This document shows, in pieces, positions 3,778 through 23,124 of a stretch of 23,666 nucleotides of DNA (within the stretch, counting starts at the first letter, position 1; every line of letters begins with the position of its first letter). The DNA is from Abditibacteriaceae bacterium (GTDB lineage: Bacteria; Armatimonadota; Abditibacteriia; Abditibacteriales; Abditibacteriaceae). A program made the translations under genes and the position numbers. The notes beneath the pieces were generated by a model. The model was not told where the DNA came from. It made no database searches and saw only the letters and a list, made by a program, of their open reading frames with translations. The stretch lies in NCBI GenBank assembly GCA_031425655.1, contig JANPJS010000263.1, positions 1-23,666 on the forward strand, written 5' to 3'.

Positions 3778-3815
3778 TGGGCGCAATCCGCCCAAAGGGC
3801 ACCGGGCGCCCCTAC
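3778..3815 (-). repeat. Double hairpin or GTAG-type REP-like sequence between convergent genes
   Basis: Minus strand reads GTAG-G-GGGCGCC-c-GGTGCCC then TGGGCG-gattg-CGCCCA. The TAG is the kinase stop codon. Confidence 0.35.
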
Positions 3816-5350
3816 TTTGTCGCTTCGCCCATTTGACACGGCAAACGAATTTCCACCAGCAATCCGCCGCTTTCGGCGTTGCGGGCGACGACTTGGCCGC
3901 CGTGTAAATGCACGGCGCGTTCGGTAATGGCAAGGCCCAATCCGACGCCGCCGCTTTGGCGGTCGCGCGCGTCGGCGATGCGATAAAAGGGGCGGAACAA
4001 TTCGCTTAACGATTCTTCGGGCACGCCTTCGCCGTAGTCGCGCACCGCGATGACGGCCCAATCGGTGCCTGTCGCGTCGTGTTCACAAGTCAGGCTGATT
4101 TGCACGGTTGTATCGTCCTTCGTGTAGCGCACGGCGTTACGCACCACGTTTTCAATCGCGCTCCGCAGCAGCGATTCGTTGCCCGAAACCGCACACTCGC
4201 AACTCGATTCCACGCGCACCGCGCACTCGCGGCTGCTGGCTTCAAAGTCGGCATCATCGCCGATTTCCGCGACTAAGCGCGCGATGTCTACGGGCGCGGT
4301 TTGCGTCATTGGCTCGCCGCTTTCCAATCGTGAAATCGTCAGCAGTTGGCCGATCATGAAATTGAGGCGCTCGGCTTCGAGTTCGATGCGATCAAGGTCT
4401 TCAACCGATTCGTCGCCGGCTGTCGTGCGCACCAAACCTAAAGCCACGCTGAGGCGCGCTAAAGGTGAGCGCAATTCGTGCGAAATATCGGCGATGAGGC
4501 GATTTTGCGCTTTCATCAGCGATTGCAGGCGCTCGGCCATTAAATCGAAATCACTGCCCAAGCCGCCTAATTCATCGCGGCGCTTTGTCAGTTTGGCACC
4601 GACGCGCGCCGATAAATCGCCGCGGGCTAAGCGCTGTGCGGCGCCGCGCAACTGCACAATCGGCGTCGTCAGGTTGCGCACCAAGCCGTAGCAGACAAGC
4701 CCTGTGGTTGCGAGCAAGGCCAGCAGGCGCAGTATCTGCGTTTGTGAGTCGGCGAAAAGCCACCACACATACCAGCGAAACGGCGGCCCGCCCGGAGGCC
4801 CGCCCGGAGGCCCGTCCTGTCTCCGCCGGTCGCCGCCGCGCCCTCCACGCGGCCCAAAACGCCCGCCGCTGGTCGTGCCCGCCACGACATAAGTTTTGCC
4901 GGCGAAACTGGCGCGCCGCGCTGCAAGAATGCGCCCTTCAGACGATTCGCGTTCGAGATTACCGCTGCGTATGGCGCGTTGCACCAAGCCTTTCAAAGTC
5001 GCCGCGCTATTGTCTTCCGGTTGAGAAACAGAGGGCGCGGGTCGTTTCAAGGCGCGCCCTTTGTCGTCGAATAGAAAAGTTTGCAATCGCTCGGTGTCGG
5101 TGAGATAAGGTTTTGCGGCGTCCGGCCCGGAACGGCTGAGAAGGGCGGCGGAGGCTTCTAAATAAGCTGTCAGAGCATCGTTGGACGGTGCAAAACGGCG
5201 CTGTGAAGAGCCGTTTTCGCGGTCTCGCCGCTCTTGCATCTGGGTGTGCGCGCGTTCCTGCGTGCTGGCCACCAAAGCCGCGAAAACGATGACGACGAGG
5301 GCCATCGCCATCCAGAACCACAGAAAAATCTTAAGAAACAGGCTTCGCAT
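3812..5350 (-). CDS. Sensor histidine kinase, CpxA-like (TM-periplasmic-TM-HAMP-HisKA-HATPase)
   Basis: MRSLFLKIFLWFW N-terminus, H-box DISHELRSPLARL, N-box ENVVRNAVRY, D.G.GV, FRPFYR..ARDRQSGGVGLGLAI. Confidence 0.95.
   Translation of the reverse strand: MRSLFLKIFLWFWMAMALVVIVFAALVASTQERAHTQMQERRDRENGSSQRRFAPSNDALTAYLEASAALLSRSGPDAAKPYLTDTERLQTFLFDDKGRALKRPAPSVSQPEDNSAATLKGLVQRAIRSGNLERESSEGRILAARRASFAGKTYVVAGTTSGGRFGPRGGRGGDRRRQDGPPGGPPGGPPFRWYVWWLFADSQTQILRLLALLATTGLVCYGLVRNLTTPIVQLRGAAQRLARGDLSARVGAKLTKRRDELGGLGSDFDLMAERLQSLMKAQNRLIADISHELRSPLARLSVALGLVRTTAGDESVEDLDRIELEAERLNFMIGQLLTISRLESGEPMTQTAPVDIARLVAEIGDDADFEASSRECAVRVESSCECAVSGNESLLRSAIENVVRNAVRYTKDDTTVQISLTCEHDATGTDWAVIAVRDYGEGVPEESLSELFRPFYRIADARDRQSGGVGLGLAITERAVHLHGGQVVARNAESGGLLVEIRLPCQMGEATK
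4785..4814. repeat. 12-bp tandem repeat (2.5 copies) encoding GPPGGPPGGP
   Basis: GGCCCGCCCGGA GGCCCGCCCGGA GGCCCG. Confidence 0.8.
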
Positions 5351-5354
5351 GGAG

Positions 5355-6068
5355 TTAAGCTACGGCGTCCTGACGGGTCAGGGCGTAAACGTAGCCCGCC
5401 CCGCGCACCGCTTTGATGCGCTCGGCTTGGCCGACCGAGTGCCCCAGTTTGCGGCGCAGATTGCTGACTAAAGTGTCAATGCTGCGGTCAAAGGGACTCA
5501 GCTTGCGGCCCAGAACGGTGCTGACTAATTCTTCGCGCGTGACAATGCGCCCGGCGTTTTTCAAAAGAAGCGTTAATAAATCGAATTCGGCGCCGGTTAG
5601 CTCGACGATTTCGCCGCCGCGCTGCGCCAGACGCGCACCGAAATCCAATTCCATGTCGCCCACGCGCAGAGTTTCGGGTTCGGAGCCATCCGGCAAGGCC
5701 GCGCTTTTGGTGCGGCGCAGAATGGCACGAATGCGCGCCGTCAGTTCGAGAGGATTGAAAGGCTTGGCTAAGTAATCGTCGGCGCCGGATTCGAGGCCGA
5801 CGATGCGATCCACATCGTCGCCGCGTGCCGTCAGCATCAAAACCGGCGTTTCTAATTCGGCGCGCAAACGCCACAAGACATCGAAGCCGTTCAATTTCGG
5901 CAGCATTACATCCAGCACGATCAGCACGTAGCCGCCGCCGAGCGCCTTTTCGACGCCGCGTTCGCCGTTGTTGGCGGTTTCGATTTCAAAGCCTTCGCGC
6001 GCCAAATAGCGCGTCACCAGCGTGCAAAGCTCCACGTCGTCGTCAATAATTAAGATTCGCTCTGCCAT
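5355..6068 (-). CDS. OmpR-family response regulator, CpxR-like
   Basis: RILIIDDD, LDVMLP, GADDYLAKPF, winged helix SPFDRSID..VSNLRRKL, VRGAGY. Start reassigned to ATG6068, which has GGAG 5 nt upstream. Confidence 0.95.
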   Translation of the reverse strand: MAERILIIDDDVELCTLVTRYLAREGFEIETANNGERGVEKALGGGYVLIVLDVMLPKLNGFDVLWRLRAELETPVLMLTARGDDVDRIVGLESGADDYLAKPFNPLELTARIRAILRRTKSAALPDGSEPETLRVGDMELDFGARLAQRGGEIVELTGAEFDLLTLLLKNAGRIVTREELVSTVLGRKLSPFDRSIDTLVSNLRRKLGHSVGQAERIKAVRGAGYVYALTRQDAVA

Positions 6069-6093
6069 GTTCGCTCCGCTTGTTCCGAAGTCA

Positions 6094-6102
6094 ATTTTAA
6101 CA
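6094..6102 (-). promoter_or_regulatory. Extended -10 for the regulator/kinase operon
   Basis: TG-T-TAAAAT, 25 nt upstream of ATG6068. Confidence 0.5.
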
Positions 6103-6143
6103 AGGCCGCGTTCGCTGCCCTGTGGAGAATTGTCAAGCCGCGC

Positions 6144-6160
6144 TTCACAAAATCTCACAA
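6144..6160 (+). promoter_or_regulatory. Candidate OmpR-family direct-repeat binding box
   Basis: TTCACAAAATCTCACAA, i.e. TCACAA repeated with a 10-bp period in the divergent intergenic region; identical 16-mer at 20348-20363. Confidence 0.6.
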
Positions 6161-6242
6161 TGCGAGCGAGGCTGTGAAGCAACCCCGGCAAGCGGCACGC
6201 TTTCTAAACGGCCATTCAACAAGCGTTGGAAAAGGAAAAATC

Positions 6243-6971
6243 ATGAAAAATCAAAAATGGATCGCCGGCCCTTTGGCGCTGGCGTGCAGTCTGGGAATGG
6301 CCGGATTAGCCGGCGCGCAACCGCCTGCAACGCCCGGCGCGGGCACCAATCCGCCCAATCAGACGGCGGGCGGCAACCTGCGCGCGACTTGGCAAAACAT
6401 GACGCCCGAACAGCGTCAAGCGGCCATCGTGCAGTTCACGGAGCGTCGTTTGCGTAACGATCTGACGCAGGCCGGCTTTGCCGACGCGGCCACGCAAGAC
6501 CCGATTGTCGCTTTCTCCAAAACCATGGAAGCGCTGCGCCGGCCCTTGCGCGAAAAGGCGACCAAACTGCGCGAAGCCGTTGCCAATAAAACTGCGGACG
6601 CCGTCGTAACGCCGCTGATTAGCGATCTGCGTAAAGCAACCGAAGACGCCAAACAGCCACGCGAAGAAGCGTTGAAAGTTTTGGACGGCAAAATCAACTA
6701 CAGCACGAAGCCGCGCCTTCAAGCCTTTTTAATGGTTGGCGGCTTGCTTGGCGATGAGATGGCCTTCGCAGGTGGCGCCGGTGGTTTCGGCGCCGGTGGT
6801 TTCAGCGGTGGCGGTTTTGGCGGACAAGGCGGACGTGGCGGCGCCGGTGGACAAGGCGGAGCCGGGCAGGGCGCAGCCGGGGCCCAGAACGGTCAAGGCG
6901 GCGCCGGTGGCCGTGGTCGCGGACGCGGTGGACGCGGTGGAAACAACGCCGGCAATGCCGCCAACAATTAA
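6243..6971 (+). CDS. Periplasmic Spy/CpxP-like helical protein with Gly/RGG-rich tail
   Basis: ATG6243 with AAGGA RBS; signal peptide ending AGA-Q; MTPEQRQ (LTxxQ-like); helical core; divergent from cpxRA-like genes. Confidence 0.65.
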   Translation: MKNQKWIAGPLALACSLGMAGLAGAQPPATPGAGTNPPNQTAGGNLRATWQNMTPEQRQAAIVQFTERRLRNDLTQAGFADAATQDPIVAFSKTMEALRRPLREKATKLREAVANKTADAVVTPLISDLRKATEDAKQPREEALKVLDGKINYSTKPRLQAFLMVGGLLGDEMAFAGGAGGFGAGGFSGGGFGGQGGRGGAGGQGGAGQGAAGAQNGQGGAGGRGRGRGGRGGNNAGNAANN

Positions 6972-7003: not shown

Positions 7004-7052
7004 CAAAAGCAACGGCCATTTTCGTATTTTGCGAAAATGGCCGTTGCTTTTG
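7004..7052. terminator. Bidirectional intrinsic terminator
   Basis: Perfect 21-bp inverted repeat CAAAAGCAACGGCCATTTTCG with a 7-nt loop, between convergent genes. Confidence 0.85.
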
Positions 7053-7058
7053 CAGCAT

Positions 7059-10000
7059 TCAATTCCCCTTCAGCGTCAACGGGAAATTCTGGCCTCTGGA
7101 AAACGGAACGGGCCATTGTTCGCGCCCACGATATTGCTTGGCCAGTTCGGGCACGCGCTCTTCGGTATACGCGAAAAGTTGGCTGACTTTGACGATGCTG
7201 TCGGTTCCCGCCGCTTTACCGCCCAAGCCTTCGAGCAACGCATAAGTGAGGATGCCGTGACCCAGCGATTTGACTTCGTTCGCGTATTGTTGGCCGGTTG
7301 AAGCCGTGAGGACGTGGATGCCTTGCGCTCTTGCTAACATCGCTAAAGCTTGTTGCTCATCGGAGCTGCCACGCGTTGCGCCCGCGACGGCTGCCCCACT
7401 TTTGCAGGCGTCGTAGATGAGAATAATCTTGCGCGCCGGGATTTTTGAAACTAATTCGTCAATGGTTTTGCCGCTGAGACCGAACTGGCGCACGCGCTCT
7501 TTCATTACCATCTGGCGCATTTCAGCCGGCAGAAAATAGAAGCTTTGCGCCGAGGCCGGATCGTCGTCTTTGGCGGCGCTGTCGGCAGCGGTTTCGCCAT
7601 GCCCGGCTAAATAAATCACGGCCACATCTTCGGGTTTGGCGTTTTGCGCGATTTGTTTCAGCGCGTTTTGAATCGCTTCGCCGGTTGCGGCTTCATCGAG
7701 CAAACTCGTGACATTGATGCGCGAAAACAAGCCTTTATTTGCCCTTTGCGCTTGGAAAAACTGCGCCAAAGCCTCGGCGTCGGGCCGCGCGTAACTCAGT
7801 TCCATCGTAGCGTCGCGGTATTGGTTAATGCCGACGCAAACGACGTGCAACGCCGGTTTTTGCGCGGCTGCTGCGAATTGCAATTTTACTTCGTCAGGCC
7901 GGCTTTCCAGATCGGTTTGCGAATACGCGACGGTGCGCAGCACGTTATCGCCCGGCGCCAGCGCGACGTTGAATTTCTGCGCGAAATTATTGTTTTGCGC
8001 CGCTTCCACGACAATGCCACGCAAATTAGGCGGGCCACCGACCAATCTGCCGTTGTGATAAAGGCGAATCGCTTTGACGCCGTTCGGCGCGCTCGCTTCG
8101 ACACTGACTTCGATTTGCTCGGTTTTGGCTGCGCCTGCGGTTGGCGAAGTGATTTTTACAACCGGCGGCGCGCCTTGCGATACGGCTTGCGCCAGCGATG
8201 TCATCGGCGCATTTTCATTCGGCGCCTGCGTGAGAAGTCGCATTAAACCGGGACGATAAAATCGCTCGGCGAACTGGTCGAGCGCGTAAATCTGTGTGCC
8301 GCGCGCGAACGAGACGTTTTTCAGGGCGCCGGGCGAGCCGTCAAATTGGCCATCGGGCGTGTAGGCCAGCCAATCATCTCCCGGCAAGCGCACGAAGCGA
8401 AATAATTCTTTGCCGTTGTCCAGTCGCCACACGCGCAACTGTTTATAACCGTCTTCGCTGATGCCCAGTCCGCGCGTCACATCCAGTCCGACATCGTGTT
8501 GCATCACGTCGAATTCTTTGAAACCTTCGCTGCCGGGAATCGGCAATTCTTTCAGCGTTTTGCCGTCAGCATCCAAAATCACGAGATGCGATCCTGCCAC
8601 ATAGATTTTCTGGCTATCCGGCGAAAACGCCAGACGCACGAACAAGCCTTTGCCCAAATATTGCGACTTGGGGGCGCCGGTGGCGGCTTCAAAAAGCCGA
8701 ATGACATTGAAACCCGCTGCCGCGATGGTTTTCCCATCAGGTGAAACCGCCACGCGCAGCGGCGAGCCGGGTGCCTCGGCTTTGGGGTTGAGCGTGGATT
8801 TGGTTTTCCACAGTTGTTTTCCGCTATCGGTGTCGTGAGCGCGCAAAAATTCGCCGTTGCAGGAATAAAGCGTGCGATTGTCTGGCCCGAAGGCGGCGCC
8901 GATGAAAGTCCCACGAAAAGTCGAGCCGATATTCGGCGCATCCATGCCTTGCAGCGGCGGCAAAGGCTTGAAATCGGGGGCGCCGAAAACCATCTGTTTT
9001 TCTCTGGAACTCGCCGCGACGCGCGAAGCATCATCGCTCCACACGGCAAAGCCGAGGCTGCCGAAATCCTGCGCCGTGCCTTTCCTGGTGCCAATCACGC
9101 GCGGCGCGCTGGGGTTTTTGGCGTCCCAGAACCACAGCGTATCTTTCCAATCGTTGCCGAGGATGCGTCGCCCGTCGGGGCTAATGGCAGCCGCGCTAAT
9201 TGGTTTTTCGTTGCCGCGAAAAAGCTGCGTGCCGCCGCCTGCCAGATCGCGCAGTTCAAACCGGCCATCGTCGGCGGCCAGCAGCATTTGACCGGTGCGC
9301 GTGCTGCCGACCACGCGCGTCCACGGCAACTCGCTCGAAATCGTGCGCGGCGTGCCATTTTGCCACAACGTGACGGCATCGCTGCCGCCACCAGAGGCAA
9401 TTTTCTGCGAAAGCGGCGAAAACGCGATGTCTTTAATGTCGCCGCTTTGCGGGTTTTTCCAAGTTGATGTGACTTTTCCGGTTTGCAGATCGCGCGTTAG
9501 CAAAGCGCCGCTTGCCGTGCCATAAAGCAGCGTTTTGCCGCCCTGCGAAAAGCGCGCGACTTGCAAGGTCGTGCCGGGAATTGGCGCTAAAATCTGCGGT
9601 GCCGCTGTGCCATTGACCGTGAAAATCAGCGTTTTGCCATCGTCGGAGAGCGCCAGAATTTTGGAATTGTCGTTGTTCCAATCGAGGCCGCTCACGCCGG
9701 ATTTCAGCGGCCAGGCCCATTCCTTGAGCACCTTGCCGGCGGGGTCGTAAACGCGCAGCGGCGTTTTGCTGCCGCCATCCACAAACGCCGCGAGCGATTT
9801 TCCATCGCGGGAAACTTGCAGCGATTGGACGTTATAGCCGTGTGTTCGCAGCGCGGCCTGCCAACTGACAAGAGCTTTTTCGCTTTGCGCGTCGTAAATG
9901 CGAATTTTGCCGTCGCTGTAAGTGCCGTCGCTACCCGTCACGGCCAAATTTCCATCGGCCAAAACGCAGATTTTCGAGCCGCCGAAGCGCATTTTCGTGA

Positions 10001-10376
10001 GCACGGGTGCCGCTGTGCTTTGCGGGTCAATGCAATAAATGCGGCCCACGAAATCGCCGGCCCACAGCACGCTGCCATCGCGTGAAAACGCCAGTTGCTT
10101 GATGGATTTCTCAAAATTCCAAGTCTGAACCGCGCGTCCACTGCTCACTTCCCACAGCTTCACGCTTTCATCGAAGGCGGCGCTGGCCACGAATTTTTCG
10201 TCGGGCGACCAGCGCAAACTGTCAATCCATTTGGTGTGCCCGACCGGCAAAACAAGGCGCACCGGGTCGCCGGTTGGCCGTGCATCTTCGATAACAATTT
10301 GTTTGGAGGCCGGTTCGGCAGCAAGAATCGGCAAAACCAGCAGAGCTGTCAGGCTGAGAAGTATTGGGTTTCGCAT
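7059..10376 (-). CDS. Secreted WD40-repeat + Ig-like + caspase (peptidase C14) protein A
   Basis: Signal peptide; WD40 repeats (GHTKWIDSLRWSPDEKFVASAAFDESVKLWE); dyad YLAGHG and YDACKSG; GHGILTYALLEGL; EQWP. Confidence 0.92.
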   Translation of the reverse strand: MRNPILLSLTALLVLPILAAEPASKQIVIEDARPTGDPVRLVLPVGHTKWIDSLRWSPDEKFVASAAFDESVKLWEVSSGRAVQTWNFEKSIKQLAFSRDGSVLWAGDFVGRIYCIDPQSTAAPVLTKMRFGGSKICVLADGNLAVTGSDGTYSDGKIRIYDAQSEKALVSWQAALRTHGYNVQSLQVSRDGKSLAAFVDGGSKTPLRVYDPAGKVLKEWAWPLKSGVSGLDWNNDNSKILALSDDGKTLIFTVNGTAAPQILAPIPGTTLQVARFSQGGKTLLYGTASGALLTRDLQTGKVTSTWKNPQSGDIKDIAFSPLSQKIASGGGSDAVTLWQNGTPRTISSELPWTRVVGSTRTGQMLLAADDGRFELRDLAGGGTQLFRGNEKPISAAAISPDGRRILGNDWKDTLWFWDAKNPSAPRVIGTRKGTAQDFGSLGFAVWSDDASRVAASSREKQMVFGAPDFKPLPPLQGMDAPNIGSTFRGTFIGAAFGPDNRTLYSCNGEFLRAHDTDSGKQLWKTKSTLNPKAEAPGSPLRVAVSPDGKTIAAAGFNVIRLFEAATGAPKSQYLGKGLFVRLAFSPDSQKIYVAGSHLVILDADGKTLKELPIPGSEGFKEFDVMQHDVGLDVTRGLGISEDGYKQLRVWRLDNGKELFRFVRLPGDDWLAYTPDGQFDGSPGALKNVSFARGTQIYALDQFAERFYRPGLMRLLTQAPNENAPMTSLAQAVSQGAPPVVKITSPTAGAAKTEQIEVSVEASAPNGVKAIRLYHNGRLVGGPPNLRGIVVEAAQNNNFAQKFNVALAPGDNVLRTVAYSQTDLESRPDEVKLQFAAAAQKPALHVVCVGINQYRDATMELSYARPDAEALAQFFQAQRANKGLFSRINVTSLLDEAATGEAIQNALKQIAQNAKPEDVAVIYLAGHGETAADSAAKDDDPASAQSFYFLPAEMRQMVMKERVRQFGLSGKTIDELVSKIPARKIILIYDACKSGAAVAGATRGSSDEQQALAMLARAQGIHVLTASTGQQYANEVKSLGHGILTYALLEGLGGKAAGTDSIVKVSQLFAYTEERVPELAKQYRGREQWPVPFSRGQNFPLTLKGN

Positions 10377-10382
10377 AATGCT

Positions 10383-13300
10383 CTATTTTCGGACAATCGG
10401 GAAATTCTGGCCTTTGCCGAAGGTGACAGGCCATTGCTCACGCCCGCGAAATTCTTTAGCTAAAGCCGGCACGCGATCATCGGTGTAAGCGAACAAACCG
10501 TTGACTTTCACCAGCGAATCGCTGCCTGCCGCTTTGCCGCCCAAACCTTCAAGCAGAGCATAAGTAAGAATGCCGTGACCAAGTGCCTTGACTTCGCCCG
10601 CATATTGCTGCGCAGTCGAAGCTGTCAGCACGAAAATGCCTTGCGCGCGGGCCAGTTGGGCTAAAGCCTGCTGCTCATCGCCAGCGCCGCGCGTAGCATT
10701 GTCAACTGCCGCGCCGCTTTTGCAAGCGTCATAAACCAAAACCACTTTGCGCGCCGGGATTTTCGAGATAAGCGCGTTGATTTCCGCGCCGGACAAGCCG
10801 AATTCGCGCACGCGCTTTTTCATAACCATCTGGCGCATTTCGTAAGGTAAAAAGTAAAAGTTTTGCGGTGCGTTCGGGTCGTCGTCGCCGGCTTCATCGG
10901 GCGCGGCGGTTTCGCCGTGTCCGGCCATGTAAAGGAAAACCACGTCTTCGGGCTTGGCTTGCGCGGCCACGTCTGCGAGTGCTTTTTTGATGGCTTCGCC
11001 GGTCGCGGCTTCGTCCATTAGCGCCGTGACGTTGCTGCTCGAAAACAGCGTGGTGTTTTTCGCATCTTTGAAAAATTGCACGAGCGATTCGGCGTCGGGA
11101 CGCGCGTAAGTCAGGTTCATGGTCGCATCGCGGTAAGCGTTGATTCCAATTGCGACAACGTGCAGAGCCGGTTTTTGCGTCGCGCTGGCGAAACTGATTC
11201 TGACTTCGTCCGACTTGCTTTCCAGATCGGTTTGCGAATAAGCGACGGCGCGCAAAGCGTTCTCGCCGGGCGCTAATAAAACACTGAATTTCTGCGTGAG
11301 CGCGCCGTTTATCGGAGCGGCAGGCACAGCAGCGGCCTCGACGACGATACCGCGCAACTGGCCCGGCCCGCCGACCAAGCGTCCGTTTTGATAAAGTCGA
11401 ATCGCTTTGATGCCGCCGTTGTTTTGCGCTGTCGCTTGCACCGTGACTTCGATTTGCGCGCCGGGCGCCGCGCCGGTTTGCGGACTTGTGATTTTCACGA
11501 CGGGTGGCGCGCCCTGGGCTAAAAGCGCACCGGCGCTGGCTTCGGGCGTTGCGGCTCCGGCGTTGTCGCCTTCAGCGCCCTGCATAATCTGGCGCACCAA
11601 TCCGGGACAATAAAAGCGTTCGGCGAACTGTTCCAGCGCGTAAGTTTTGCCGTTTTGCTCAAAGGTCACGCGCTCGATGCCGCCGGGCGAGCCGTCGAAC
11701 AGGCCGTCGGGCGTGAAGGCCATCCAATCGCCGTTTTCCATCGCCAAATAAGTGAGTAGGGTTTTACCGCTTTGCAATTCGCGCAGCGCGATGCTGCCGT
11801 TGTTTTGAACGATGAAACTGAGTTTTTTTGCTGCATCTGAGCCGGTTACTTCGCGTCCGCTTTGCACGTCCCAAACTTGCGTGATGCGTCCTTGCGGTGC
11901 TTGGTTGAAAACCCATTTGTTGTCGCCCGAAAATTCAAAAGCGTAGTTTCGCTTGCCCAGTTCGCGGACAAATATGCCGTTTTCCACATCATACAAACGC
12001 AGAACCGGGCGCGATCTTTCCTGCCCTTCGTAGATGAATGGCTCCGTCTCGGCGCTGCTCAACAGAAAGCGGCCATCGGCACTGAAAATGGTCTGGCCCA
12101 ATGTTGACAGGTAACCTTGTGCGTCGGGTTTGGCGAAGCTCCATTGCTTCACCGGGCGCCGTGCGGCGATGTCCCAGACACGCGCCATGCCACCGTCGTC
12201 GAGGCTGATGGCGCGCTGGCCGTCATTGCTCCACATCACGTTGACGATGTTTTTCCCAGCGCCTTCCATGTTGGCAATGGGCAGGGCGGCATCCAGATTC
12301 CACAAATGCAAAATCATGTCATCGCCGCCACCTAAAAACTGCCGCCCATCGGGACTAAAAGCCAGAGCATGAATGCCATGGGTAAAGCCCTTGTATTCGC
12401 GCACCGGCTGGTCGGAAGTTGTATCGAACAGCCAGAGGCGTGAGGCATGGTCAAGATCGCCCGCGCTGACTAAAACGCGGCGGCTGTCACGGCTCCACGC
12501 CACGGCGTTGGGCGTCCCCGGCACTTGCCAGCGGCGCAAGCGGCGACCTGTCGCAATGTCCGAGAGTTGCAGGATATTGGTGCCGTCGTCCGTAGGCGAA
12601 TAGGAATCGGTGCGCGCCAGCATCGAGCGTCCATCCGGGCTGATGAGCAGCTTTTTAATGAGAAGGGAATAGCCCCGAAACGCGCGCACGCTGCGGCGCG
12701 CAGCATTGGAAAGGTCGGCAATGCTCCACATTTGCGCGATTTTATCAAAGCCCGCCGAAACCAAAGAAGCGTTGTCATTGCTGAAAGAAAGGCCAAAAAC
12801 GCTATCTTTATGGCCGCGCCACGACGCGACAAGACGCTTTGTCGCCACTTCCCACACGCGCAAATCGCCCATATCCGAGCCGGTAGCGACCATCTTGCCG
12901 TCCGGCGAAAGCGCGCCCGCAGTGCAAATGAAGTCGGGCGCATCAAAGCGCGCGGTTTCGCGGGCCGCGTCCACATCCCAAATCAGCACGTTGTCTGGAA
13001 CACTCCCAACCAGAAATTTCCCGTCGCGGCGCAGTGCCAGTGGGTCGAATTCGATTTTGCGCGATGTGAGCAGCTTGCCCGTTTCGATATCGTAGCCAAT
13101 TATGCGGCCATCAACAGCGGCACCGATGGCGCGCTGGCCGTCGGCGCTCCAGGCCACAGCGCGCGTTGTAGATAGAGCGGTTGTGGATTTGGCCGGATCG
13201 GTTTCCATGACGCGCATTTGCTCGCCGCTTTCCAAGTTCCACAAACGCACTTTCCCGTCTTCGCAACCTGAAAGCGCCTGCCTACCATCGGCGCTAAAAG

Positions 13301-13703
13301 CGATGGATTTTATGCCGTAGGGATGCTTCATTTCGCGCAGCACTCGGCCCGATTCCACATCCCACAGATAAAGAATGCCGGCATCGTTGCAACCGACCAG
13401 AGCGCGTTTTCCATCGGGACTAAAAGCCGCTGACGAAGCGTAGCTTTTCAGCGGCAGCACCCGCACTTCGCGGCCCGACGCCACATCCCAAAGCCGCGCC
13501 GCGTAATCGCCGCCGGCTGTCAGCATCAAATCGCCGCGCGGCGACAGCACCGCCGCAAACAAACCGCCGGTGTGGCCAAGCGGCGGCACCATGCGCAGCG
13601 CGCCTTCGCTGTCCGCCGCGCTGCCGGCCTCGACTACGATTTGTTTGCTGGGCTGCGCGAAAACCGGCAATGCAAGCGCGAGGAGGAGAAATAGAAGACG
13701 CAT
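10383..13703 (-). CDS. Secreted WD40-repeat + Ig-like + caspase (peptidase C14) protein B
   Basis: Signal peptide ending VFA-Q; canonical GH...WD repeats; dyad YMAGHG and YDACKSG; C-terminal ~400 aa closely parallels protein A. Confidence 0.92.
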   Translation of the reverse strand: MRLLFLLLALALPVFAQPSKQIVVEAGSAADSEGALRMVPPLGHTGGLFAAVLSPRGDLMLTAGGDYAARLWDVASGREVRVLPLKSYASSAAFSPDGKRALVGCNDAGILYLWDVESGRVLREMKHPYGIKSIAFSADGRQALSGCEDGKVRLWNLESGEQMRVMETDPAKSTTALSTTRAVAWSADGQRAIGAAVDGRIIGYDIETGKLLTSRKIEFDPLALRRDGKFLVGSVPDNVLIWDVDAARETARFDAPDFICTAGALSPDGKMVATGSDMGDLRVWEVATKRLVASWRGHKDSVFGLSFSNDNASLVSAGFDKIAQMWSIADLSNAARRSVRAFRGYSLLIKKLLISPDGRSMLARTDSYSPTDDGTNILQLSDIATGRRLRRWQVPGTPNAVAWSRDSRRVLVSAGDLDHASRLWLFDTTSDQPVREYKGFTHGIHALAFSPDGRQFLGGGDDMILHLWNLDAALPIANMEGAGKNIVNVMWSNDGQRAISLDDGGMARVWDIAARRPVKQWSFAKPDAQGYLSTLGQTIFSADGRFLLSSAETEPFIYEGQERSRPVLRLYDVENGIFVRELGKRNYAFEFSGDNKWVFNQAPQGRITQVWDVQSGREVTGSDAAKKLSFIVQNNGSIALRELQSGKTLLTYLAMENGDWMAFTPDGLFDGSPGGIERVTFEQNGKTYALEQFAERFYCPGLVRQIMQGAEGDNAGAATPEASAGALLAQGAPPVVKITSPQTGAAPGAQIEVTVQATAQNNGGIKAIRLYQNGRLVGGPGQLRGIVVEAAAVPAAPINGALTQKFSVLLAPGENALRAVAYSQTDLESKSDEVRISFASATQKPALHVVAIGINAYRDATMNLTYARPDAESLVQFFKDAKNTTLFSSSNVTALMDEAATGEAIKKALADVAAQAKPEDVVFLYMAGHGETAAPDEAGDDDPNAPQNFYFLPYEMRQMVMKKRVREFGLSGAEINALISKIPARKVVLVYDACKSGAAVDNATRGAGDEQQALAQLARAQGIFVLTASTAQQYAGEVKALGHGILTYALLEGLGGKAAGSDSLVKVNGLFAYTDDRVPALAKEFRGREQWPVTFGKGQNFPIVRK

Positions 13704-13715
13704 AATGGGAGGGCT

Positions 13716-13871
13716 TTTAACACCATCCCCGGCCCTTCCCCTTGAAACGGCTAAGGGGAAGGGGGTTGTGGCCCATCTGTTCCGAAAAAATTAATAGTTT
13801 TTCGGGACAAAAGTGGCGGTTCTCCCTTCCCCTTAGCCGTTTCAAGGGGAAGGGCCGGGGATGGGGTTAAA
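13716..13871. repeat. Inverted doublet of BoxC-like palindromes (REPIN/MITE-like)
   Basis: Perfect 41-bp inverted repeat 13723-13763 / 13824-13864, extendable with one mismatch. Each arm holds an 11-bp hairpin CCCTTCCCCTT..AAGGGGAAGGG. TTAA on both flanks. Confidence 0.9.
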
Positions 13872-16004
13872 TCAATCTTTAACCGTCAAAAGCACGATGT
13901 CGGTGGCCCAGCCTTCGGTGGTAATCGGCTGATTGCGCGCATCGGGCGGCAACACTTCGATGCCGCGTGCGCCGTTGTTGAGTTCGCGCTTCAACTGTGC
14001 GAGCAGCGCGGTGGCGATGTCGGAGCCGTTGCCCTGCAACGTGGCGATTTCGCCGCCTGCCGCTTCCAAGACTTCGAGCCGCAGCGGCGCTTCGGTGACG
14101 ATAGCCTTAATGGCTTCGCCACCGGCAGGGCCGGCTACACGCAAACGATATAAATTCGGCGCCGGCAAGCTGGTAGTTTCGCCGGCGCGCAGCTTGTTAT
14201 TCGCCGCGTATTTGTTGGGAAAAAGCACCGTCACTTTGCCCGCCGGGTCAACGTCCACCAGATACAAGTAACAGTCGCGCTCGGCGCGGGCCGTGAACGA
14301 AACCGTATCGTTGATCTTGATGGTATCGAAATCTTTGCCGTTGACCTGCAAATCAACGTGCATGGCGGCTTTGGGATTTTCCATCGCCACCAATTGATTG
14401 ACCGTATAAAGATTCTCTAAAACGCGCCCGATTTTCGGAAACACGTCGTCCACATCGGCGCCCGTAATCGCCGGAAGCTGCTGTTGGTTACGATATACGT
14501 TGAGGCGAAGGCCGTCGCCTGCTCCGCCGCGCTGCGAAAACTCCAGTTCAGCCTCGTGTGGCGCCTTCGCGTCAACAACCTGCACGAAATCGAGAGCGCC
14601 GATTTTCTGCGAGAGCGCGGCTTTGCTGTTGCCGGGAGCCTCGCCAAGCAATGCCACGCGCAGCTTTTTCGAGGCGACGAAGTGAAAGGTTTCGCGCAAT
14701 TTGTCGCCGGCGGCAAAAGTGCCTTTGACGATGCGCGCTGTGCCGCTGGTGCCGTTAGCCGTGAGAACGCGCAAAGCCGAGCCGCCAGCGTTTTCAAAAA
14801 TGCTGCCCGGCGAAAGCTCCAAACCGGCGCTAACTTGAATCTGCGCGGTATCGCCCGCGATGGACAGCACGCTGGCGTTGGCACCGGCGATTTGCGCTGC
14901 GACTGGTTGCGTAACCGGCGGCGCAACGACAACGGGCGGCGTAACCGACGTTGGTGGTTTGACTGCGGTCGGTGGCGTCGTTGCGGGCGCTGTGGTTGGC
15001 GGTGTGGGTGAAGCCAACAAAGCATTCAGGGAAGCGGCTAACGCGGCGACTGTGCTGCCATCGAGCGTGGTGCGTTTGAGCGCGGCGCCTTCGAGTTGCG
15101 GCACTTGCTCGAACTTTTGTTTTTGCAGCCACAGGCTCAGGTCTTTATGAATGTCGGCGTAGCTGGCATCCGGCTTTTCAAGGGCCGTGGCTAAGAAGGC
15201 AAACGTCAGCGCGCCCATAAAAGGATTGATGACCTGGTCGCCGCAATACTTGCCTTTGGTTTTGATTTGGTCGAGATAAGCCTTGATTTTGGCTTCTTCG
15301 TCGGGCAGCAAAAACGGATAATCCGACGACGTTTGATCGGAGCGGCAACCGGTGAGCAGAACCGGAACGGCGCCGTCGGGCGCCAAGTCGTCGGCGCGGG
15401 CGTTGGCGGCGCCGATGGGGAATTTGAAATCGCGCGGATTGATGCCCAAATCTTCAGCGTCAATGGCGCGCGGGATGCCGCCGCCGCGCAAACCTGTGCC
15501 GCTGTGACATGAATCGAGCATGATAAAGGCGTTTTTGGTTTTGAGACGGCCTACCCAATCGCCCAAGTTGTCGTCGGTGATATACGATTCGATGGTGCCG
15601 CCGGCATCGTAAGGCACAAGGGCTTCGTCTTTGCCGTCGGCTTCGTCGCCGTTGCGGTCGGGCAGCGAAGTGCCGTGCCCGGAATAATAAAACATCACGA
15701 AATCGCCCGGCCCGGCCTTGTTAATCAGATGGTCGCGGAACGCCTGCTCAATGCCGGCGCGCGACGATTGCGCTTTTTCCAGCGAGCGCACGTTTTCCGG
15801 CTTGAAGCCGTAAATGTCTGTCAGCACGGTGCGCATTTCTTTGAGATCGTTGACCGGGCCGCTCAGCCATTTATCGCGCGGCGATTTTTGCATCTCGCTC
15901 ACGCCGACCAAAAGCGCGTATTTTTCGGCGTGCGCCGGCTGCGCCACGCCGCTCAAAACCATCGTGCCGCCTATGAGCGCGACCTTCGTAATCAAAGTTT
16001 TCAT
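13872..16004 (-). CDS. Secreted caspase (peptidase C14) + Pro/Thr linker + DUF4384 protein C
   Basis: Signal peptide ending AHA-E; KYALLVGV, LSGPVND, FYYSGHG, DGKDEALVPYD, LDSCHSG; C-terminal DCYLYLVDVDPAGKVTVLFPN..GPAGGEAIKAI typical of DUF4384; GGAG RBS. Confidence 0.9.
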   Translation of the reverse strand: MKTLITKVALIGGTMVLSGVAQPAHAEKYALLVGVSEMQKSPRDKWLSGPVNDLKEMRTVLTDIYGFKPENVRSLEKAQSSRAGIEQAFRDHLINKAGPGDFVMFYYSGHGTSLPDRNGDEADGKDEALVPYDAGGTIESYITDDNLGDWVGRLKTKNAFIMLDSCHSGTGLRGGGIPRAIDAEDLGINPRDFKFPIGAANARADDLAPDGAVPVLLTGCRSDQTSSDYPFLLPDEEAKIKAYLDQIKTKGKYCGDQVINPFMGALTFAFLATALEKPDASYADIHKDLSLWLQKQKFEQVPQLEGAALKRTTLDGSTVAALAASLNALLASPTPPTTAPATTPPTAVKPPTSVTPPVVVAPPVTQPVAAQIAGANASVLSIAGDTAQIQVSAGLELSPGSIFENAGGSALRVLTANGTSGTARIVKGTFAAGDKLRETFHFVASKKLRVALLGEAPGNSKAALSQKIGALDFVQVVDAKAPHEAELEFSQRGGAGDGLRLNVYRNQQQLPAITGADVDDVFPKIGRVLENLYTVNQLVAMENPKAAMHVDLQVNGKDFDTIKINDTVSFTARAERDCYLYLVDVDPAGKVTVLFPNKYAANNKLRAGETTSLPAPNLYRLRVAGPAGGEAIKAIVTEAPLRLEVLEAAGGEIATLQGNGSDIATALLAQLKRELNNGARGIEVLPPDARNQPITTEGWATDIVLLTVKD

Positions 16005-16063: not shown

Positions 16064-16101
16064 AAAACGCGGCTCACTCCGATAGGGAGGGAGCCGCGTT
16101 T
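16064..16101 (-). terminator. Intrinsic terminator after the oxidoreductase gene
   Basis: AAAACGCGGCTC ... GAGCCGCGTTTT with inner CTCC/GGAG pairing; separates the caspase genes from upstream genes. Confidence 0.75.
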
Positions 16102-20347: not shown

Positions 20348-20363
20348 TGTGAGATTTTGTGAA
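20348..20363 (-). promoter_or_regulatory. Second copy of the direct-repeat box
   Basis: TGTGAGATTTTGTGAA is the exact reverse complement of 6144-6159. Confidence 0.55.
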
Positions 20364-20390
20364 TAGCGTTTAAGTCCCCTTTAGTTCAGT

Positions 20391-20430
20391 TATAATCCTC
20401 TCAACTTATCGGATTTAAGGAGTTGGTCTT
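20391..20430 (+). promoter_or_regulatory. TATAAT -10, leader and RBS of pilin-like gene 1
   Basis: TATAAT 20391-20396 and TAAGGAG; conserved before all three paralogs. Confidence 0.8.
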
Positions 20431-21159
20431 ATGTTATTTGTTACTCGCCGTATCCGTTCAGCGAAGCGACGTTCAGGCTTCACGTTGATCGAACTGTTGG
20501 TCGTCATAGCGATAATCGCGCTCCTCGCCGCGATTTTGTTCCCGGTTTTCGCACGCGCCCGTGAAAACGCCCGCAAATCAAGTTGTGCCAACAATGTTAA
20601 GCAGATTTTGTTGGGTGTGGCTCAATACACGCAGGACTACGACGAGACGTATCCCCTTGGTTGGGCCGGTCCTGGCAACATCACATGGAATCAGCGGATT
20701 TTTCCCTATGTAAAGAGCAAGCAGGTCTTCTTGTGCCCAAGTGAGTCCAACCCTACCTACGTGTTTTCCACGGGCACTCTGGATGGCGTCACCCCATTCG
20801 TCACGACCTACAATGCCAACAACTCGTTCATCAATGGAGGCGGTCCGAGTCTGAACATGGCTGACCTGGTGAAGGCGTCAACCACTGTCTTCATGAGCGA
20901 TTCGGGTGTCACCACAACTGCGGCTGCCCCCTACATCAGCACCAGTCCCTCCATCAAAAAAGGTGCTTGGATATTGGTTCCTGCCAACAACGGAAATGCA
21001 ACTAACTCTGGCAACGCGGACTGGGCTGGCCCAAATGCACGTCACTTGGAAACCGCCAACCTGGGCTTCGCCGATGGTCACGTCAAGGCAATGAAGAACA
21101 ATTCATGGTATTCCGTTGGTGCCACCACCCCGTGGCTCAACCCCGCAGTCGGCGGTTAA
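20431..21159 (+). CDS. Prepilin-type N-methylation / DUF1559 / H-X9-DG protein, copy 1
   Basis: G^[58 protein letters not shown]. Confidence 0.93.
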
Positions 21160-21178
21160 ACCGCAAGCCATGATGAAT

Positions 21179-21214
21179 AAAAGCCCGCGATGTGGAATTC
21201 CATCGCGGGCTTTT
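21179..21214 (+). terminator. Intrinsic terminator 1
   Basis: AAAAGCCCGCGATG ... CATCGCGGGCTTTT. Confidence 0.85.
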
Positions 21215-21314
21215 GCGTGCCTGCGCGGTTGAAACCGTAAACTGCCCGCGTGAGCAACGGTCGCAAAATAACGCGAAAGGTGAGAAATCGTGTTTAGGTT
21301 GTCCTCATGTCGGT

Positions 21315-21355
21315 TATAATCTTTTCAACTTATTGGAATTTAAGGAGTTGGTTTT
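21315..21355 (+). promoter_or_regulatory. TATAAT -10, leader and RBS of copy 2
   Basis: TATAAT 21315-21320 and TAAGGAG. Confidence 0.8.
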
Positions 21356-22102
21356 ATGTTTACCTGTCACCGTGTTGCTGTAGAGAAGCGCCGTTCGGGC
21401 TTCACCCTGATCGAACTGCTGGTCGTCATAGCGATAATCGCGTTGCTTGCGGCTATCCTGTTCCCTGTTTTCGCTCGCGCTCGTGAAAACGCCCGAAAAT
21501 CCAGTTGCGCCAACAACGTCAAACAGCTCCTGCTGGGCGTTGCGCAATACACTCAGGATTACGACGAGACGTTTCCTGTTGGCCATAATGGCATCTCAGG
21601 CGCAAGCGTGTATTGGGGTCAGATCATCATGCCCTACATCAAGAGCACGCAGAGCTTCTTGTGTCCCAGCCAGTCCGGGGCGACGTATATATGGGCCACC
21701 ACACCTGCGCCCGCCGGAATTGCGAACCCCTTCGTCACCAGCTACGCCGCCAACTATCAATTGCAGCGCGATGGCGGCGCCGGTGGCGGACGGAGCATTG
21801 CTGACGTAGCCAAAGCTTCCAATACCATCTATATGTCCGATTCAGGAGTGCAGGCTACAGGCGCCGCTCCGTGGATTACGCCCAATCCCACCGTGAAGAA
21901 AGGGACATGGATTTTGCAGGATCCGACCACGACAGGTTGTCCTGGCTGTGCAACGAGCGGCAATCAAGACTGGGCTGGCCCCCATGACCGCCACCTTGAT
22001 AGTGCCAACGTCGGCTTTGCGGACGGCCACGTTAAAGCTATGAAATACACCACGTGGTATTTCGGCAATACACCGTGGCTCGACCCGGCGCGCGGCGGCT
22101 AA
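21356..22102 (+). CDS. Prepilin-type N-methylation / DUF1559 / H-X9-DG protein, copy 2
   Basis: Same motifs; [15 protein letters not shown]. Confidence 0.93.
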
Positions 22103-22122
22103 AACCGCCTGCTTTGCGCTTG

Positions 22123-22159
22123 AAATCCCCGCGATGTGGAAACACGTCGCGGGGATTTT
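22123..22159 (+). terminator. Intrinsic terminator 2
   Basis: AAATCCCCGCGATGTG-gaaa-CACGTCGCGGGGATTTT. Confidence 0.85.
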
Positions 22160-22259
22160 CGTGTCTCGCTTTCTGTAACCATAAACTGCCCCGCGTGAGC
22201 AACGGTCGCAAAATAGTGCGAAATGTGAGAAATCGTGTTTAGGTTGTCCCCACGTCGGT

Positions 22260-22301
22260 TATAATCGTTTCAACTTATTGGAATTTAAGGAGTTGGTATT
22301 C
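22260..22301 (+). promoter_or_regulatory. TATAAT -10, leader and RBS of copy 3
   Basis: TATAAT 22260-22265 and TAAGGAG. Confidence 0.8.
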
Positions 22302-23045
22302 ATGCTGTTTGTTACTCGCCGTATCCGTTCAGCGAAACGTCATCAAGGTTTCACGCTGATCGAACTGTTGGTCGTCATAGCGATAATCGCTTTGCTCGCG
22401 GCCATTCTTTTTCCGGTTTTCGCCAGAGCGCGCGAAAACGCGCGCAAGTCAAGTTGTGCCAACAACGTCAGACAGCTCATGTTGGGTGTGGCTCAATACA
22501 CCCAGGATTTTGATGAGACGTTCCCCACCGGCCACACCAACAACGGCGTTAATTGGGCTATGAGGCTCGTCCCATATCTGAAAAACACCCAGGTTTTTAT
22601 CTGTCCCAGTCAGTCAGGGCCGTATCCGGTATGGGGCAACGTCGTTGCGGGCACTGCCGCCCCACTGCCAATTAATTACGTCGCCAATTATCGTTTACAG
22701 CGCGACGAGGGTGCGGGAGGAGCGCGCAACATGGCGGATGTTGCCAAGTCCGCATCCACGGTTTACATGGTTGACGGTGGAGCAACGGCCTTGGGCGCAG
22801 CGCCGTGGATTGTAAATCCGACTAATCCCACGCCGAAGAAAGGCGCCTGGATTTTAACTGACCCAACTTACGCCGGCGGTGGATGTTGCACCCAGAACGC
22901 TGGCGATCCCAACTGGGGCACCCCGTTAGATCGTCACCTGGACTCATCCAATGTCGGTTTTGTAGATGGACACGTCAAGTCCATGAAATACACCTCATGG
23001 TATTACGGCGGCACCCCGTGGCTCGACCCGGCAACCGGCGGCTAA
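22302..23045 (+). CDS. Prepilin-type N-methylation / DUF1559 / H-X9-DG protein, copy 3
   Basis: Start reassigned to ATG22302 (RBS and paralogy); HLDSSNVGFVDGHVK. Confidence 0.93.
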   Translation: MLFVTRRIRSAKRHQGFTLIELLVVIAIIALLAAILFPVFARARENARKSSCANNVRQLMLGVAQYTQDFDETFPTGHTNNGVNWAMRLVPYLKNTQVFICPSQSGPYPVWGNVVAGTAAPLPINYVANYRLQRDEGAGGARNMADVAKSASTVYMVDGGATALGAAPWIVNPTNPTPKKGAWILTDPTYAGGGCCTQNAGDPNWGTPLDRHLDSSNVGFVDGHVKSMKYTSWYYGGTPWLDPATGG

Positions 23046-23065
23046 ACCCGTCGCTTTGCGCTTCC

Positions 23066-23100
23066 AAGCCCCGCAACGTGAAACACGTTGCGGGGCTTTT
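23066..23100 (+). terminator. Intrinsic terminator 3
   Basis: AAGCCCCGCAACGTG-aaa-CACGTTGCGGGGCTTTT. Confidence 0.85.
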
Positions 23101-23124
23101 GCGTGTCTGCCGTGTTTGAAGCCG

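Follow-up and report, generated by a model that had tools for sequence, protein, structure and literature searches.

Exported-looking caspase homologs of two types form a co-inherited candidate protease relay in an Abditibacteriaceae bacterium

When several caspase-like protease genes stand side by side in a bacterial genome and all appear to encode exported proteins, do their products act on one another, and if so, in which direction? This question is raised by a contig of an Abditibacteriaceae bacterium (JANPJS010000263.1, assembly GCA_031425655.1), the whole of which, 23.7 kb long, is the window analysed here, leaving about 7 kb on each side of a caspase unit of three adjacent minus-strand genes. 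In the direction of transcription, these genes encode P0003 (710 amino acids, 13872-16004), P0002 (1106 amino acids, 10383-13703) and P0001 (1105 amino acids, 7059-10376). The source genome is 97% complete and contains six matches to PF00656 (peptidase C14) plus one more divergent copy, three of them at this locus. An initial annotation had read the genes as an extracytoplasmic sensor-protease relay in which all three proteases activate one another. Our results lead us to favour, at slightly better than an even chance, a two-part extracytoplasmic relay, in which ligand sensing by the propeller proteins P0001 and P0002 would lead them to cleave the DUF4384 protease P0003 after arginine and thereby activate it.

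The Pfam matches bear out the domains first assigned to these proteins: PF00656 scores over its cut-off in each of the three proteins, WD40 is found in P0001 and P0002, and DUF4384 in P0003 (residues 563-640). In addition, a Big_7 immunoglobulin-like (Ig) domain was found in P0001 by the Pfam scan and in P0002 by precomputed annotation. P0002 comprises a putative signal peptide (1-16), two WD40 propellers (37-663), a helical linker, the Ig domain (731-840) and the C14 domain (845-1106); its AlphaFold model (pTM 0.84) contains about 625 residues of blades (37-663) and matches tandem double propellers. P0001 has a P0002-like architecture with divergent propellers, while P0003 consists of a putative signal peptide (1-26), a metacaspase-like C14 domain (27-310), a Pro/Thr linker (331-372), a pair of small middle domains (375-544) and the DUF4384 part (545-710), a beta-sandwich. 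The His-Cys dyads are intact, as annotated. In P0003 they lie in SGHG (108-111, 15672-15683, minus strand), with catalytic His110 kept in 81 of 82 aligned homologs, and in DSCHSG (164-169, 15498-15515, minus strand), with Asp164 and catalytic Cys166 kept in 80/82 and 81/82. The corresponding motifs are AGHG (927-930) and DACKSG (992-997) in P0002, with His929 and Cys994, and AGHG (924-927) and DACKSG (989-994) in P0001, with His926 and Cys991. PF00656 together with an intact dyad places all three among C14B-fold His-Cys proteases. The closest folds to the P0003 protease domain are the type II metacaspases AtMC4 and AtMC9 (PDB 6w8r and 8a53; Z 28.1 and 28.0, root-mean-square deviation 2.4-2.7, 244-255 residues aligned), followed by another C14B enzyme, Geobacter GSU0716 (3bij; Z 25.6). 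These enzymes share with P0003 the dyad motifs and acidic residues; unlike P0003, they are cytoplasmic, single-module proteins with a long linker and without a DUF4384 or propeller partner, whereas P0003 has an Arg at Cys+7. As regards a possible calcium dependence, D123, D126, E127, D133, D144 and D145 of P0003 are kept in 74-79 of 82 homologs.

As for the remainder of P0003, its middle part (window 14373-14882) models as a small beta-barrel like the N-terminal barrel of F1-ATPase beta (Z 8.6, near background) plus an alpha/beta domain. The DUF4384 part (window 13875-14372) is similar in fold to the macroglobulin domains of alpha-2-macroglobulin and of complement C3/C4/C5 (Z 8.1-9.1, near background; root-mean-square deviation about 2 over about 90 aligned residues). 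No solved structure of a DUF4384 or WD40-Ig-C14 protein was recognised among the structure matches listed, and the ESM Atlas returned only DUF4384 and unnamed clusters, below 0.9.

The signal peptides proposed in the initial annotation fit the anatomy of the N-termini. All three proteins have a basic n-region, a hydrophobic h-region (best 11-residue hydropathy 2.9 in P0001, 2.9 in P0002 and 2.0 in P0003) and a small-x-small site. The P0003 signal peptide (15927-16004, minus strand) ends in A-H-A just before the first caspase strand, and the small-x-small site is retained in 20 of 20 rows of the P0003 clade alignment, read by eye; cleavable-looking anatomy persists across the divergent N-termini of the clade. 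An in-house signal-peptide heuristic was positive for 465 of 1039 long open reading frames (ORFs) of the genome and missed P0001; being unspecific, it was rejected as an export test. From sequence anatomy, we infer that P0001, P0002 and P0003 are probably Sec-exported.

The two propeller proteins differ where a ligand would bind and agree where they would cut. The propellers of P0001 and P0002 are only 23% and 14% identical, whereas identity rises to 64% for the Ig domain and 73% for C14. In a tree of 35 Ig-C14 regions, P0002 groups with P0004, P0005 and P0006 from other sources (support 100/99) and not with P0001, which rejects a recent tandem duplication; by this tree, P0001 and P0002 are old, maintained paralogs. 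These comparisons show that WD40-Ig-C14 proteins come as one to three paralogs that carry hypervariable double propellers on a constant Ig-protease chassis.

Are the two protease types inherited together? Two queries, the Ig-C14 part of P0002 and the last 342 residues of P0003, were run against 401 genomes of the phylum; the former put seven genomes over cut-off and the latter eight. When close matches were defined as E <1e-120 (P0002 Ig-C14) and <1e-50 (P0003), boundaries that were set afterwards at natural gaps, close relatives of both types were found in the same 6 of 401 genomes (G000, G003, G203, G233, G335 and G375). The two types are adjacent in five of these six, which establishes the co-location elsewhere that the initial annotation had called for; in G335, both reach contig edges. 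The gene order is that of the window in four. Within the source genus, two of four genomes have both types, and the other two (85% and 93% complete) have neither by these queries. One of the six, G003, carries three WD40 genes, frameshifted in the assembly. Outside this set, in genome G365, a different C14-DUF4384 gene stands two genes from a WD40-Ig-C14 gene that is more distant (40% identity).

The residues around the active sites bear on the direction of the relay. Asp53 and Asp164 of P0003 are kept in 80 of 82 homologs, and their counterparts in P0002, Asp870 and Asp992, are invariant in 69 aligned sequences; these aspartates, in G-x-x-N-D and D-x-C motifs, align with those of AtMC4, Yca1 and TbMCA2. 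We take this conserved pair to be the S1 pocket residues, as in TbMCA2. Such acidic S1 pockets predict cleavage after Arg or Lys in all three proteases. According to passages of PMC5756287, C14 enzymes other than animal caspases cleave after Arg/Lys, and a p20-p10 cut is what activates type II metacaspases. In P0003, the proposed activation cut would fall at Arg173 (LRGG, 15480-15491, minus strand), an Arg at Cys+7 kept in 78 of 82 homologs, in a loop whose predicted local confidence (pLDDT) is <50 at 168-175. P0002 has a post-catalytic Arg1005 at Cys+11 (TRGA, 10683-10694, minus strand), retained in 29 of 32 clade members, and P0001 has Arg1002 (TRGS, 7365-7376, minus strand). Of 132 dereplicated family members, an Arg falls between Cys+5 and +15 in 108 (51% expected), and exactly at +7 in 65. 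The post-catalytic Arg is absent from 3 of 32 propeller proteins and invariant in 20 of 20 C14-DUF4384 partners; being dispensable in the former and invariant in the latter, it behaves as expected for initiator versus executioner. This suggests a direction with the variable propeller proteins upstream and the single DUF4384 protease downstream. The relay first annotated is thus partly supported: export anatomy and gene co-location speak for it, and its three equal partners give way to an ordered pair of types.

The two types are further connected by a short motif, R-G-I-x-V-(E), hereafter the tag, all copies of which are encoded on the minus strand. It occurs as RGIVVE in a loop of the Ig domain in P0002 (784-789, 11337-11354) and P0001 (786-791, 8004-8021), in the wider context L-R-G-I-V-V-E-A, and as RGIEV, within A-R-G-I-E-V, in an insertion of DUF4384 in P0003 (680-684, 13953-13967), where 13 of 20 clade members have it. 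Related N-terminal copies read KQIVVE in P0002 (20-25, 13629-13646), just past the signal peptide and disordered in the model, with equivalents in 8 of 32 clade members, and KQIVIE in P0001 (25-30, 10287-10304). The Ig-loop tag is present in 29 of 32 clade proteins; among the 29 aligned relatives, R is conserved at 93%, G at 100%, I at 89% and E at 93%, against 3-27% for the following ten residues. The P0002 model has three segments with pLDDT <50 in all, of which two are tag copies (783-793 for the Ig loop). An internal tag is found in 31 of 32 WD40 clade proteins; the one without it is a partial protein in which that region is missing. Together with the post-catalytic Arg, the tag offers candidate cut sites for mutual processing.

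The tag has also moved. A copy between the propellers, near residue 350, was seen in 3 of 32 proteins (0.12 expected by shuffling) and is the sole internal copy in a lineage that lost the Ig copy. P0011, which has both internal copies, is sister (99/98) to this Armatimonas lineage with the propeller copy alone: the tag was gained at the new site before the old one was lost, in a single event. In G003, all three WD40 paralogs have the propeller copy, and the genome-wide matches to the tag pattern number three, all within the operon. Similar pairs, A-R-G-V-x-V-V-A with T-R-G-I-x-V-V, were found at two Nitrospira loci.

In the two-part relay, the WD40-Ig-C14 proteins would act as sensor-initiators, whose protease is switched on by a ligand at the propellers. 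The switched-on initiator would then cut the C14-DUF4384 zymogen at Arg173, in the loop past the catalytic Cys, much as the linker of type II metacaspases is cleaved, and the tag would be a recognition site among these proteases, serving cross-cleavage, feedback or docking. Most tentative of all the steps are the two ends: the trigger would most likely be a foreign or damage-associated envelope protein, and the output might be cleavage of envelope or foreign proteins encoded outside the unit.

Several results weigh against this relay. The six co-inheriting genomes represent about three lineages, so that a p-value is not given. The unit has no substrate or effector gene, and its flanking genes vary between genomes. 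Outside the clade, a WD40-Ig-C14 neighbour was found at 4 of the 59 C14-DUF4384 loci among 80 genome-collection loci, and DUF4384 at 0 of 16 metagenomic WD40-Ig-C14 loci, most of which are distant relatives and many of which are short. The DUF4384 tag is absent in 6 of 20 clade members although their WD40 partners retain it, and that of P0003 is ordered, not loose, in the predicted model; the tag relocation is one evolutionary event. Family-wide, the pattern RG[ILVF]x[VIL] gave 89 matches vs 30.5 in 182 proteins (2.9-fold; neighbour proteins 114 vs 114.6), but the enrichment dropped to a modest 1.4-fold on clustering at 40% identity (50 vs 36.7 +/- 5.7). The 2.9-fold value being largely redundancy, a universal tag code is not claimed; T-R-G remained 2-fold enriched after dereplication (83 vs 41.2 +/- 7.1). 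Finally, no third exported tag-bearing protein was recognised in the source genome (13 pattern matches) or in five relatives, for which 30 of 35 matches were translated and judged by eye. The tag would therefore be an internal element and not a label on outside substrates.

A bolder version of the relay, which we put forward tentatively and consider clearly less probable, is a mobile extracytoplasmic innate-sensing cascade. Here, a set of receptors, each with a hypervariable double propeller joined to an initiator caspase, would converge on one executioner metacaspase via the portable R-G-I-V-V-E; the cut would expose G-I-V-V-E, which the mature N-terminus K-Q-I-V-V-E would mimic. Such a cascade would, again doubtfully, follow the logic of Apaf-1 and caspase-9 in a single chain with no NTPase, the hexapeptide working wherever it is placed in the receptor.

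The alternative that survives best, one chance in a few in our judgement, is that these are independent self-maturing exported proteases. The tag would then be a segment for self-cleavage or self-blocking in cis, comparable to the inhibitory linker of type II metacaspases, the propellers would pick substrates for digestion or surface-protein maturation, and the genes would travel together as a cassette. Every protein does carry a dyad and a post-catalytic Arg of its own, the tag is restricted to the proteases themselves, and papain-family peptidase genes adjoin related cassettes in G233 and G365; MaOC1, moreover, autoprocesses without a partner according to a passage of PMC5756287. However, independence does not predict that two distant protease types strictly co-occur, nor that the same tag stands at three non-homologous sites of one protein and also in its partner. 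That neither tag copy is docked in its own active site in the P0002 model argues weakly in the same direction.

It is improbable, at a good deal less than the preceding alternative, that the tag is a docking strand (I-V-V-E) instead of a cut site, with a complex held through the DUF4384 or caspase domain and activation by proximity as in MALT1 and caspase-9. The N-terminal copy retains I-V-V-E with K-Q replacing R-G (8/32), which would suit docking, as would the near-background likeness of DUF4384 to the macroglobulin domains of complement C3/C5 and the presence of DUF4384 at the end of some Csx30 proteins, which are cleaved by the Csx29 protease (10.1101/2022.08.17.504292); yet it is Arg and Gly that are best conserved in the internal copies, as would fit an S1/S1' site for an enzyme specific to Arg. 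Secreted offensive or contact-dependent weapons, with variable propellers choosing target cells, would account for the patchy distribution (6/401) and for hypervariable binding domains on a constant enzyme, but are very unlikely for a unit whose ORF list and Pfam matches include neither an immunity-like small gene nor a secretion-system gene nor an anchor domain. It is hardly credible that the N-terminal helices stay uncleaved as anchors or that these are cytoplasmic death proteases: the P0003 h-region is only moderately hydrophobic, but the basic n-region, short h-region and small-x-small site are kept across divergent N-termini.

How does the unit compare with known systems? If the relay holds, a parallel in logic is the SAVED-CHAT to PCaspase pathway of a Haliangium type III-B CRISPR system, in which a C14 protease is activated on being cut by a caspase-like protease fused to a sensor, the sole two-step bacterial caspase cascade described in the literature passages searched (10.1101/2023.06.23.546230). 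That cascade, as presented there, is cytoplasmic, triggered by cyclic oligoadenylate and encoded together with genes for a sigma factor, an inhibitor and a kinase, features that were not found in the caspase unit; likewise, Cas genes, SAVED/CARF or a TPR-CHAT initiator were not found among the window ORFs scanned, and the two CHAT genes of the genome lie on another contig. DdvA of Myxococcus xanthus, a TPR-CHAT anti-sigma factor, combines a periplasmic caspase-fold His-Cys protease with a repeat sensor and is proposed in passages of PMC11506125 to be activated by a signal in defence. It is described there as a single membrane protein tied to a sigma factor of the extracytoplasmic function (ECF) type and is CHAT, not C14, whereas the caspase unit has no such pair, neither a DdvA-type transmembrane zinc anti-sigma nor an ECF sigma gene, and no membrane-spanning or transcription component at all; such pairs flank other C14-DUF4384 genes. 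The likenesses to animal proteins are analogies only: the relay, should it hold, would work like an apoptosome cascade (Apaf-1/caspase-9 to caspase-3), but the tandem WD40 match of the P0002 propellers to Apaf-1 is generic and extends to ribosome-assembly proteins, and P0001 and P0002 recall MALT1, a caspase-Ig paracaspase, in C14, Ig and predicted Arg specificity (a site L-I-S-R/S is given in a passage of PMC9463181). In contrast to Apaf-1, caspase-9 and MALT1, the unit has no STAND NTPase, CARD or death domain.

In agreement with the initial annotation, gasdermin, TIR, STAND and CRISPR families were absent from the 13 main window ORFs scanned with Pfam and the 10 ORFs scanned with PADLOC, whose only matches in the window are a generic caspase model and repeat-domain models. 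With respect to the EACC1-caspase and vWA-MoxR systems described in passages of PMC7159879, the window proteins score 44-82 with NF047832 vs a cut-off of 140; no EACC1, MoxR or vWA gene was recognised, nor any small gene in the 59 nucleotides (nt) upstream of P0003. Within the ORFs of the contig scanned, the unit thus falls outside the CRISPR-linked, gasdermin, TIR, STAND, EACC1 and DdvA-type systems. A 2012 survey, in the passages concerned (PMC3501461), reports signal-peptide-like helices in 46 of 398 single-domain prokaryotic metacaspases, WD40 as their commonest partner domain and up to three metacaspases per operon, so that exported-looking metacaspases and three-metacaspase operons alone are not new. 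The passages of PMC3501461 and PMC7159879 do not describe a pairing, tag or mechanism of the present kind, and a published description of the WD40-Ig-C14/C14-DUF4384 pairing or of the tag was not found in the literature searched, although the supplementary tables of both papers may list such operons.

Beyond the clade, another C14 or DUF4384 gene accompanies C14-DUF4384 at 29 of the 59 loci. Among the other neighbours, of which 73 of 139 selected ones were scanned, are CHASE2 proteins, trypsin, TPR-CHAT, nSTAND1-TPR and ECF sigma with zinc-finger anti-sigma. C14-DUF4384 looks like a constant module coupled to varied sensors. At nine loci from Nitrospira and others (L052, L053, L062, L069, L071, L075, L080, L094 and L099), the ECF sigma and anti-sigma genes lie immediately upstream of C14-DUF4384, often accompanied by a divergent DUF4384 gene; some were called by size and position alone. 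Papain-family (C1) peptidase genes adjoin short C14-DUF4384 or DUF4384 genes at L036, L159 and L160. In L036, the signal peptide of the DUF4384 protein is followed by K-Q-V-V-I-G-G, K-A-V-V-I-G-G stands close to the end of that protein, and R-G-V-Q-I-G occurs in the caspase; this is a locus-specific variant of the tag. The clade of P0003-type partners without the DUF4384 tag (P0137-P0141) has a three-cysteine insertion in the caspase domain.

The source genome, G000, has further genes of these kinds. A second system (contig C84, 12975-23733) encodes CHAT-domain, STAND-like TPR, exported DUF4384 and exported TPR-CHAT proteins, of which the last two carry R-G motifs; loci L028-L030 have similar layouts. 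More WD40-Ig-C14 or C14-TPR genes with signal-peptide-like starts lie on contigs C74, C305, C177, C218 and C250, without the RGIVVE tag and without a DUF4384 neighbour; the C177 copy adjoins, as judged by eye, an FHA-adenylate-cyclase-like gene and one for a Ser/Thr kinase.

The unit is bounded as the initial annotation placed it, between two terminator-like hairpins whose coordinates were confirmed and whose folded stems end in T runs; a consensus terminator scan lists neither. The hairpin at 7004-7052, with 21-bp perfect arms, closes the unit and is common to a convergent gene (6174-6971), and that at 16064-16101 (minus strand) lies 3' of the upstream oxidoreductase gene, 59 nt ahead of the P0003 start. 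Like the Ig domains and the common R-G-I-x-V tag, a 156-nt palindrome between the P0003 and P0002 genes (13716-13871; 74-nt arms, -118 kcal/mol) goes beyond that annotation. It was rejected as a part of the system, being a genome-wide repeat (59 loci with matches, self and partial ones counted) with no match in the loci of four relatives. In G003, an unrelated 14-bp hairpin with a T tail (L024 15009-15064, z -4.95) likewise lies between the C14-DUF4384 and first WD40 genes, and in G203 the gap is a mere 16 nt. A hairpin after the C14-DUF4384 gene could reduce expression of the WD40 genes relative to their partner. An Rfam scan of the window gave no match.

Convergent with the unit is a two-component system (3812-6971; response regulator and HAMP histidine kinase), divergent from the gene for a 265-residue exported Gly-rich protein that has no Pfam match. 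This region is not kept beside the unit in relatives, and a link to it or to the oxidoreductase was rejected, these neighbours not being conserved in G003, G203 and G233. On the other side, at 20362-23110, lie three tandem DUF1559 prepilin-type genes in repeat units of about 945 nt, with conserved upstream sequence and a downstream hairpin.

The described bacterial caspase cascades that we found are cytoplasmic, though many bacterial caspase homologs carry signal-peptide-like N-termini. The module presented here narrows the activation of exported caspases to two gene types of an environmental bacterium, with named residues, namely the catalytic Cys166, Cys991 and Cys994 and the candidate sites Arg173, Arg680, Arg784, Arg786, Arg1002 and Arg1005. 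If the relay proves true, caspases would form an initiator-executioner cascade outside the cytoplasm, DUF4384 would gain a role, and the variable propellers would offer a receptor family with ligands that could be searched for by a protease read-out.

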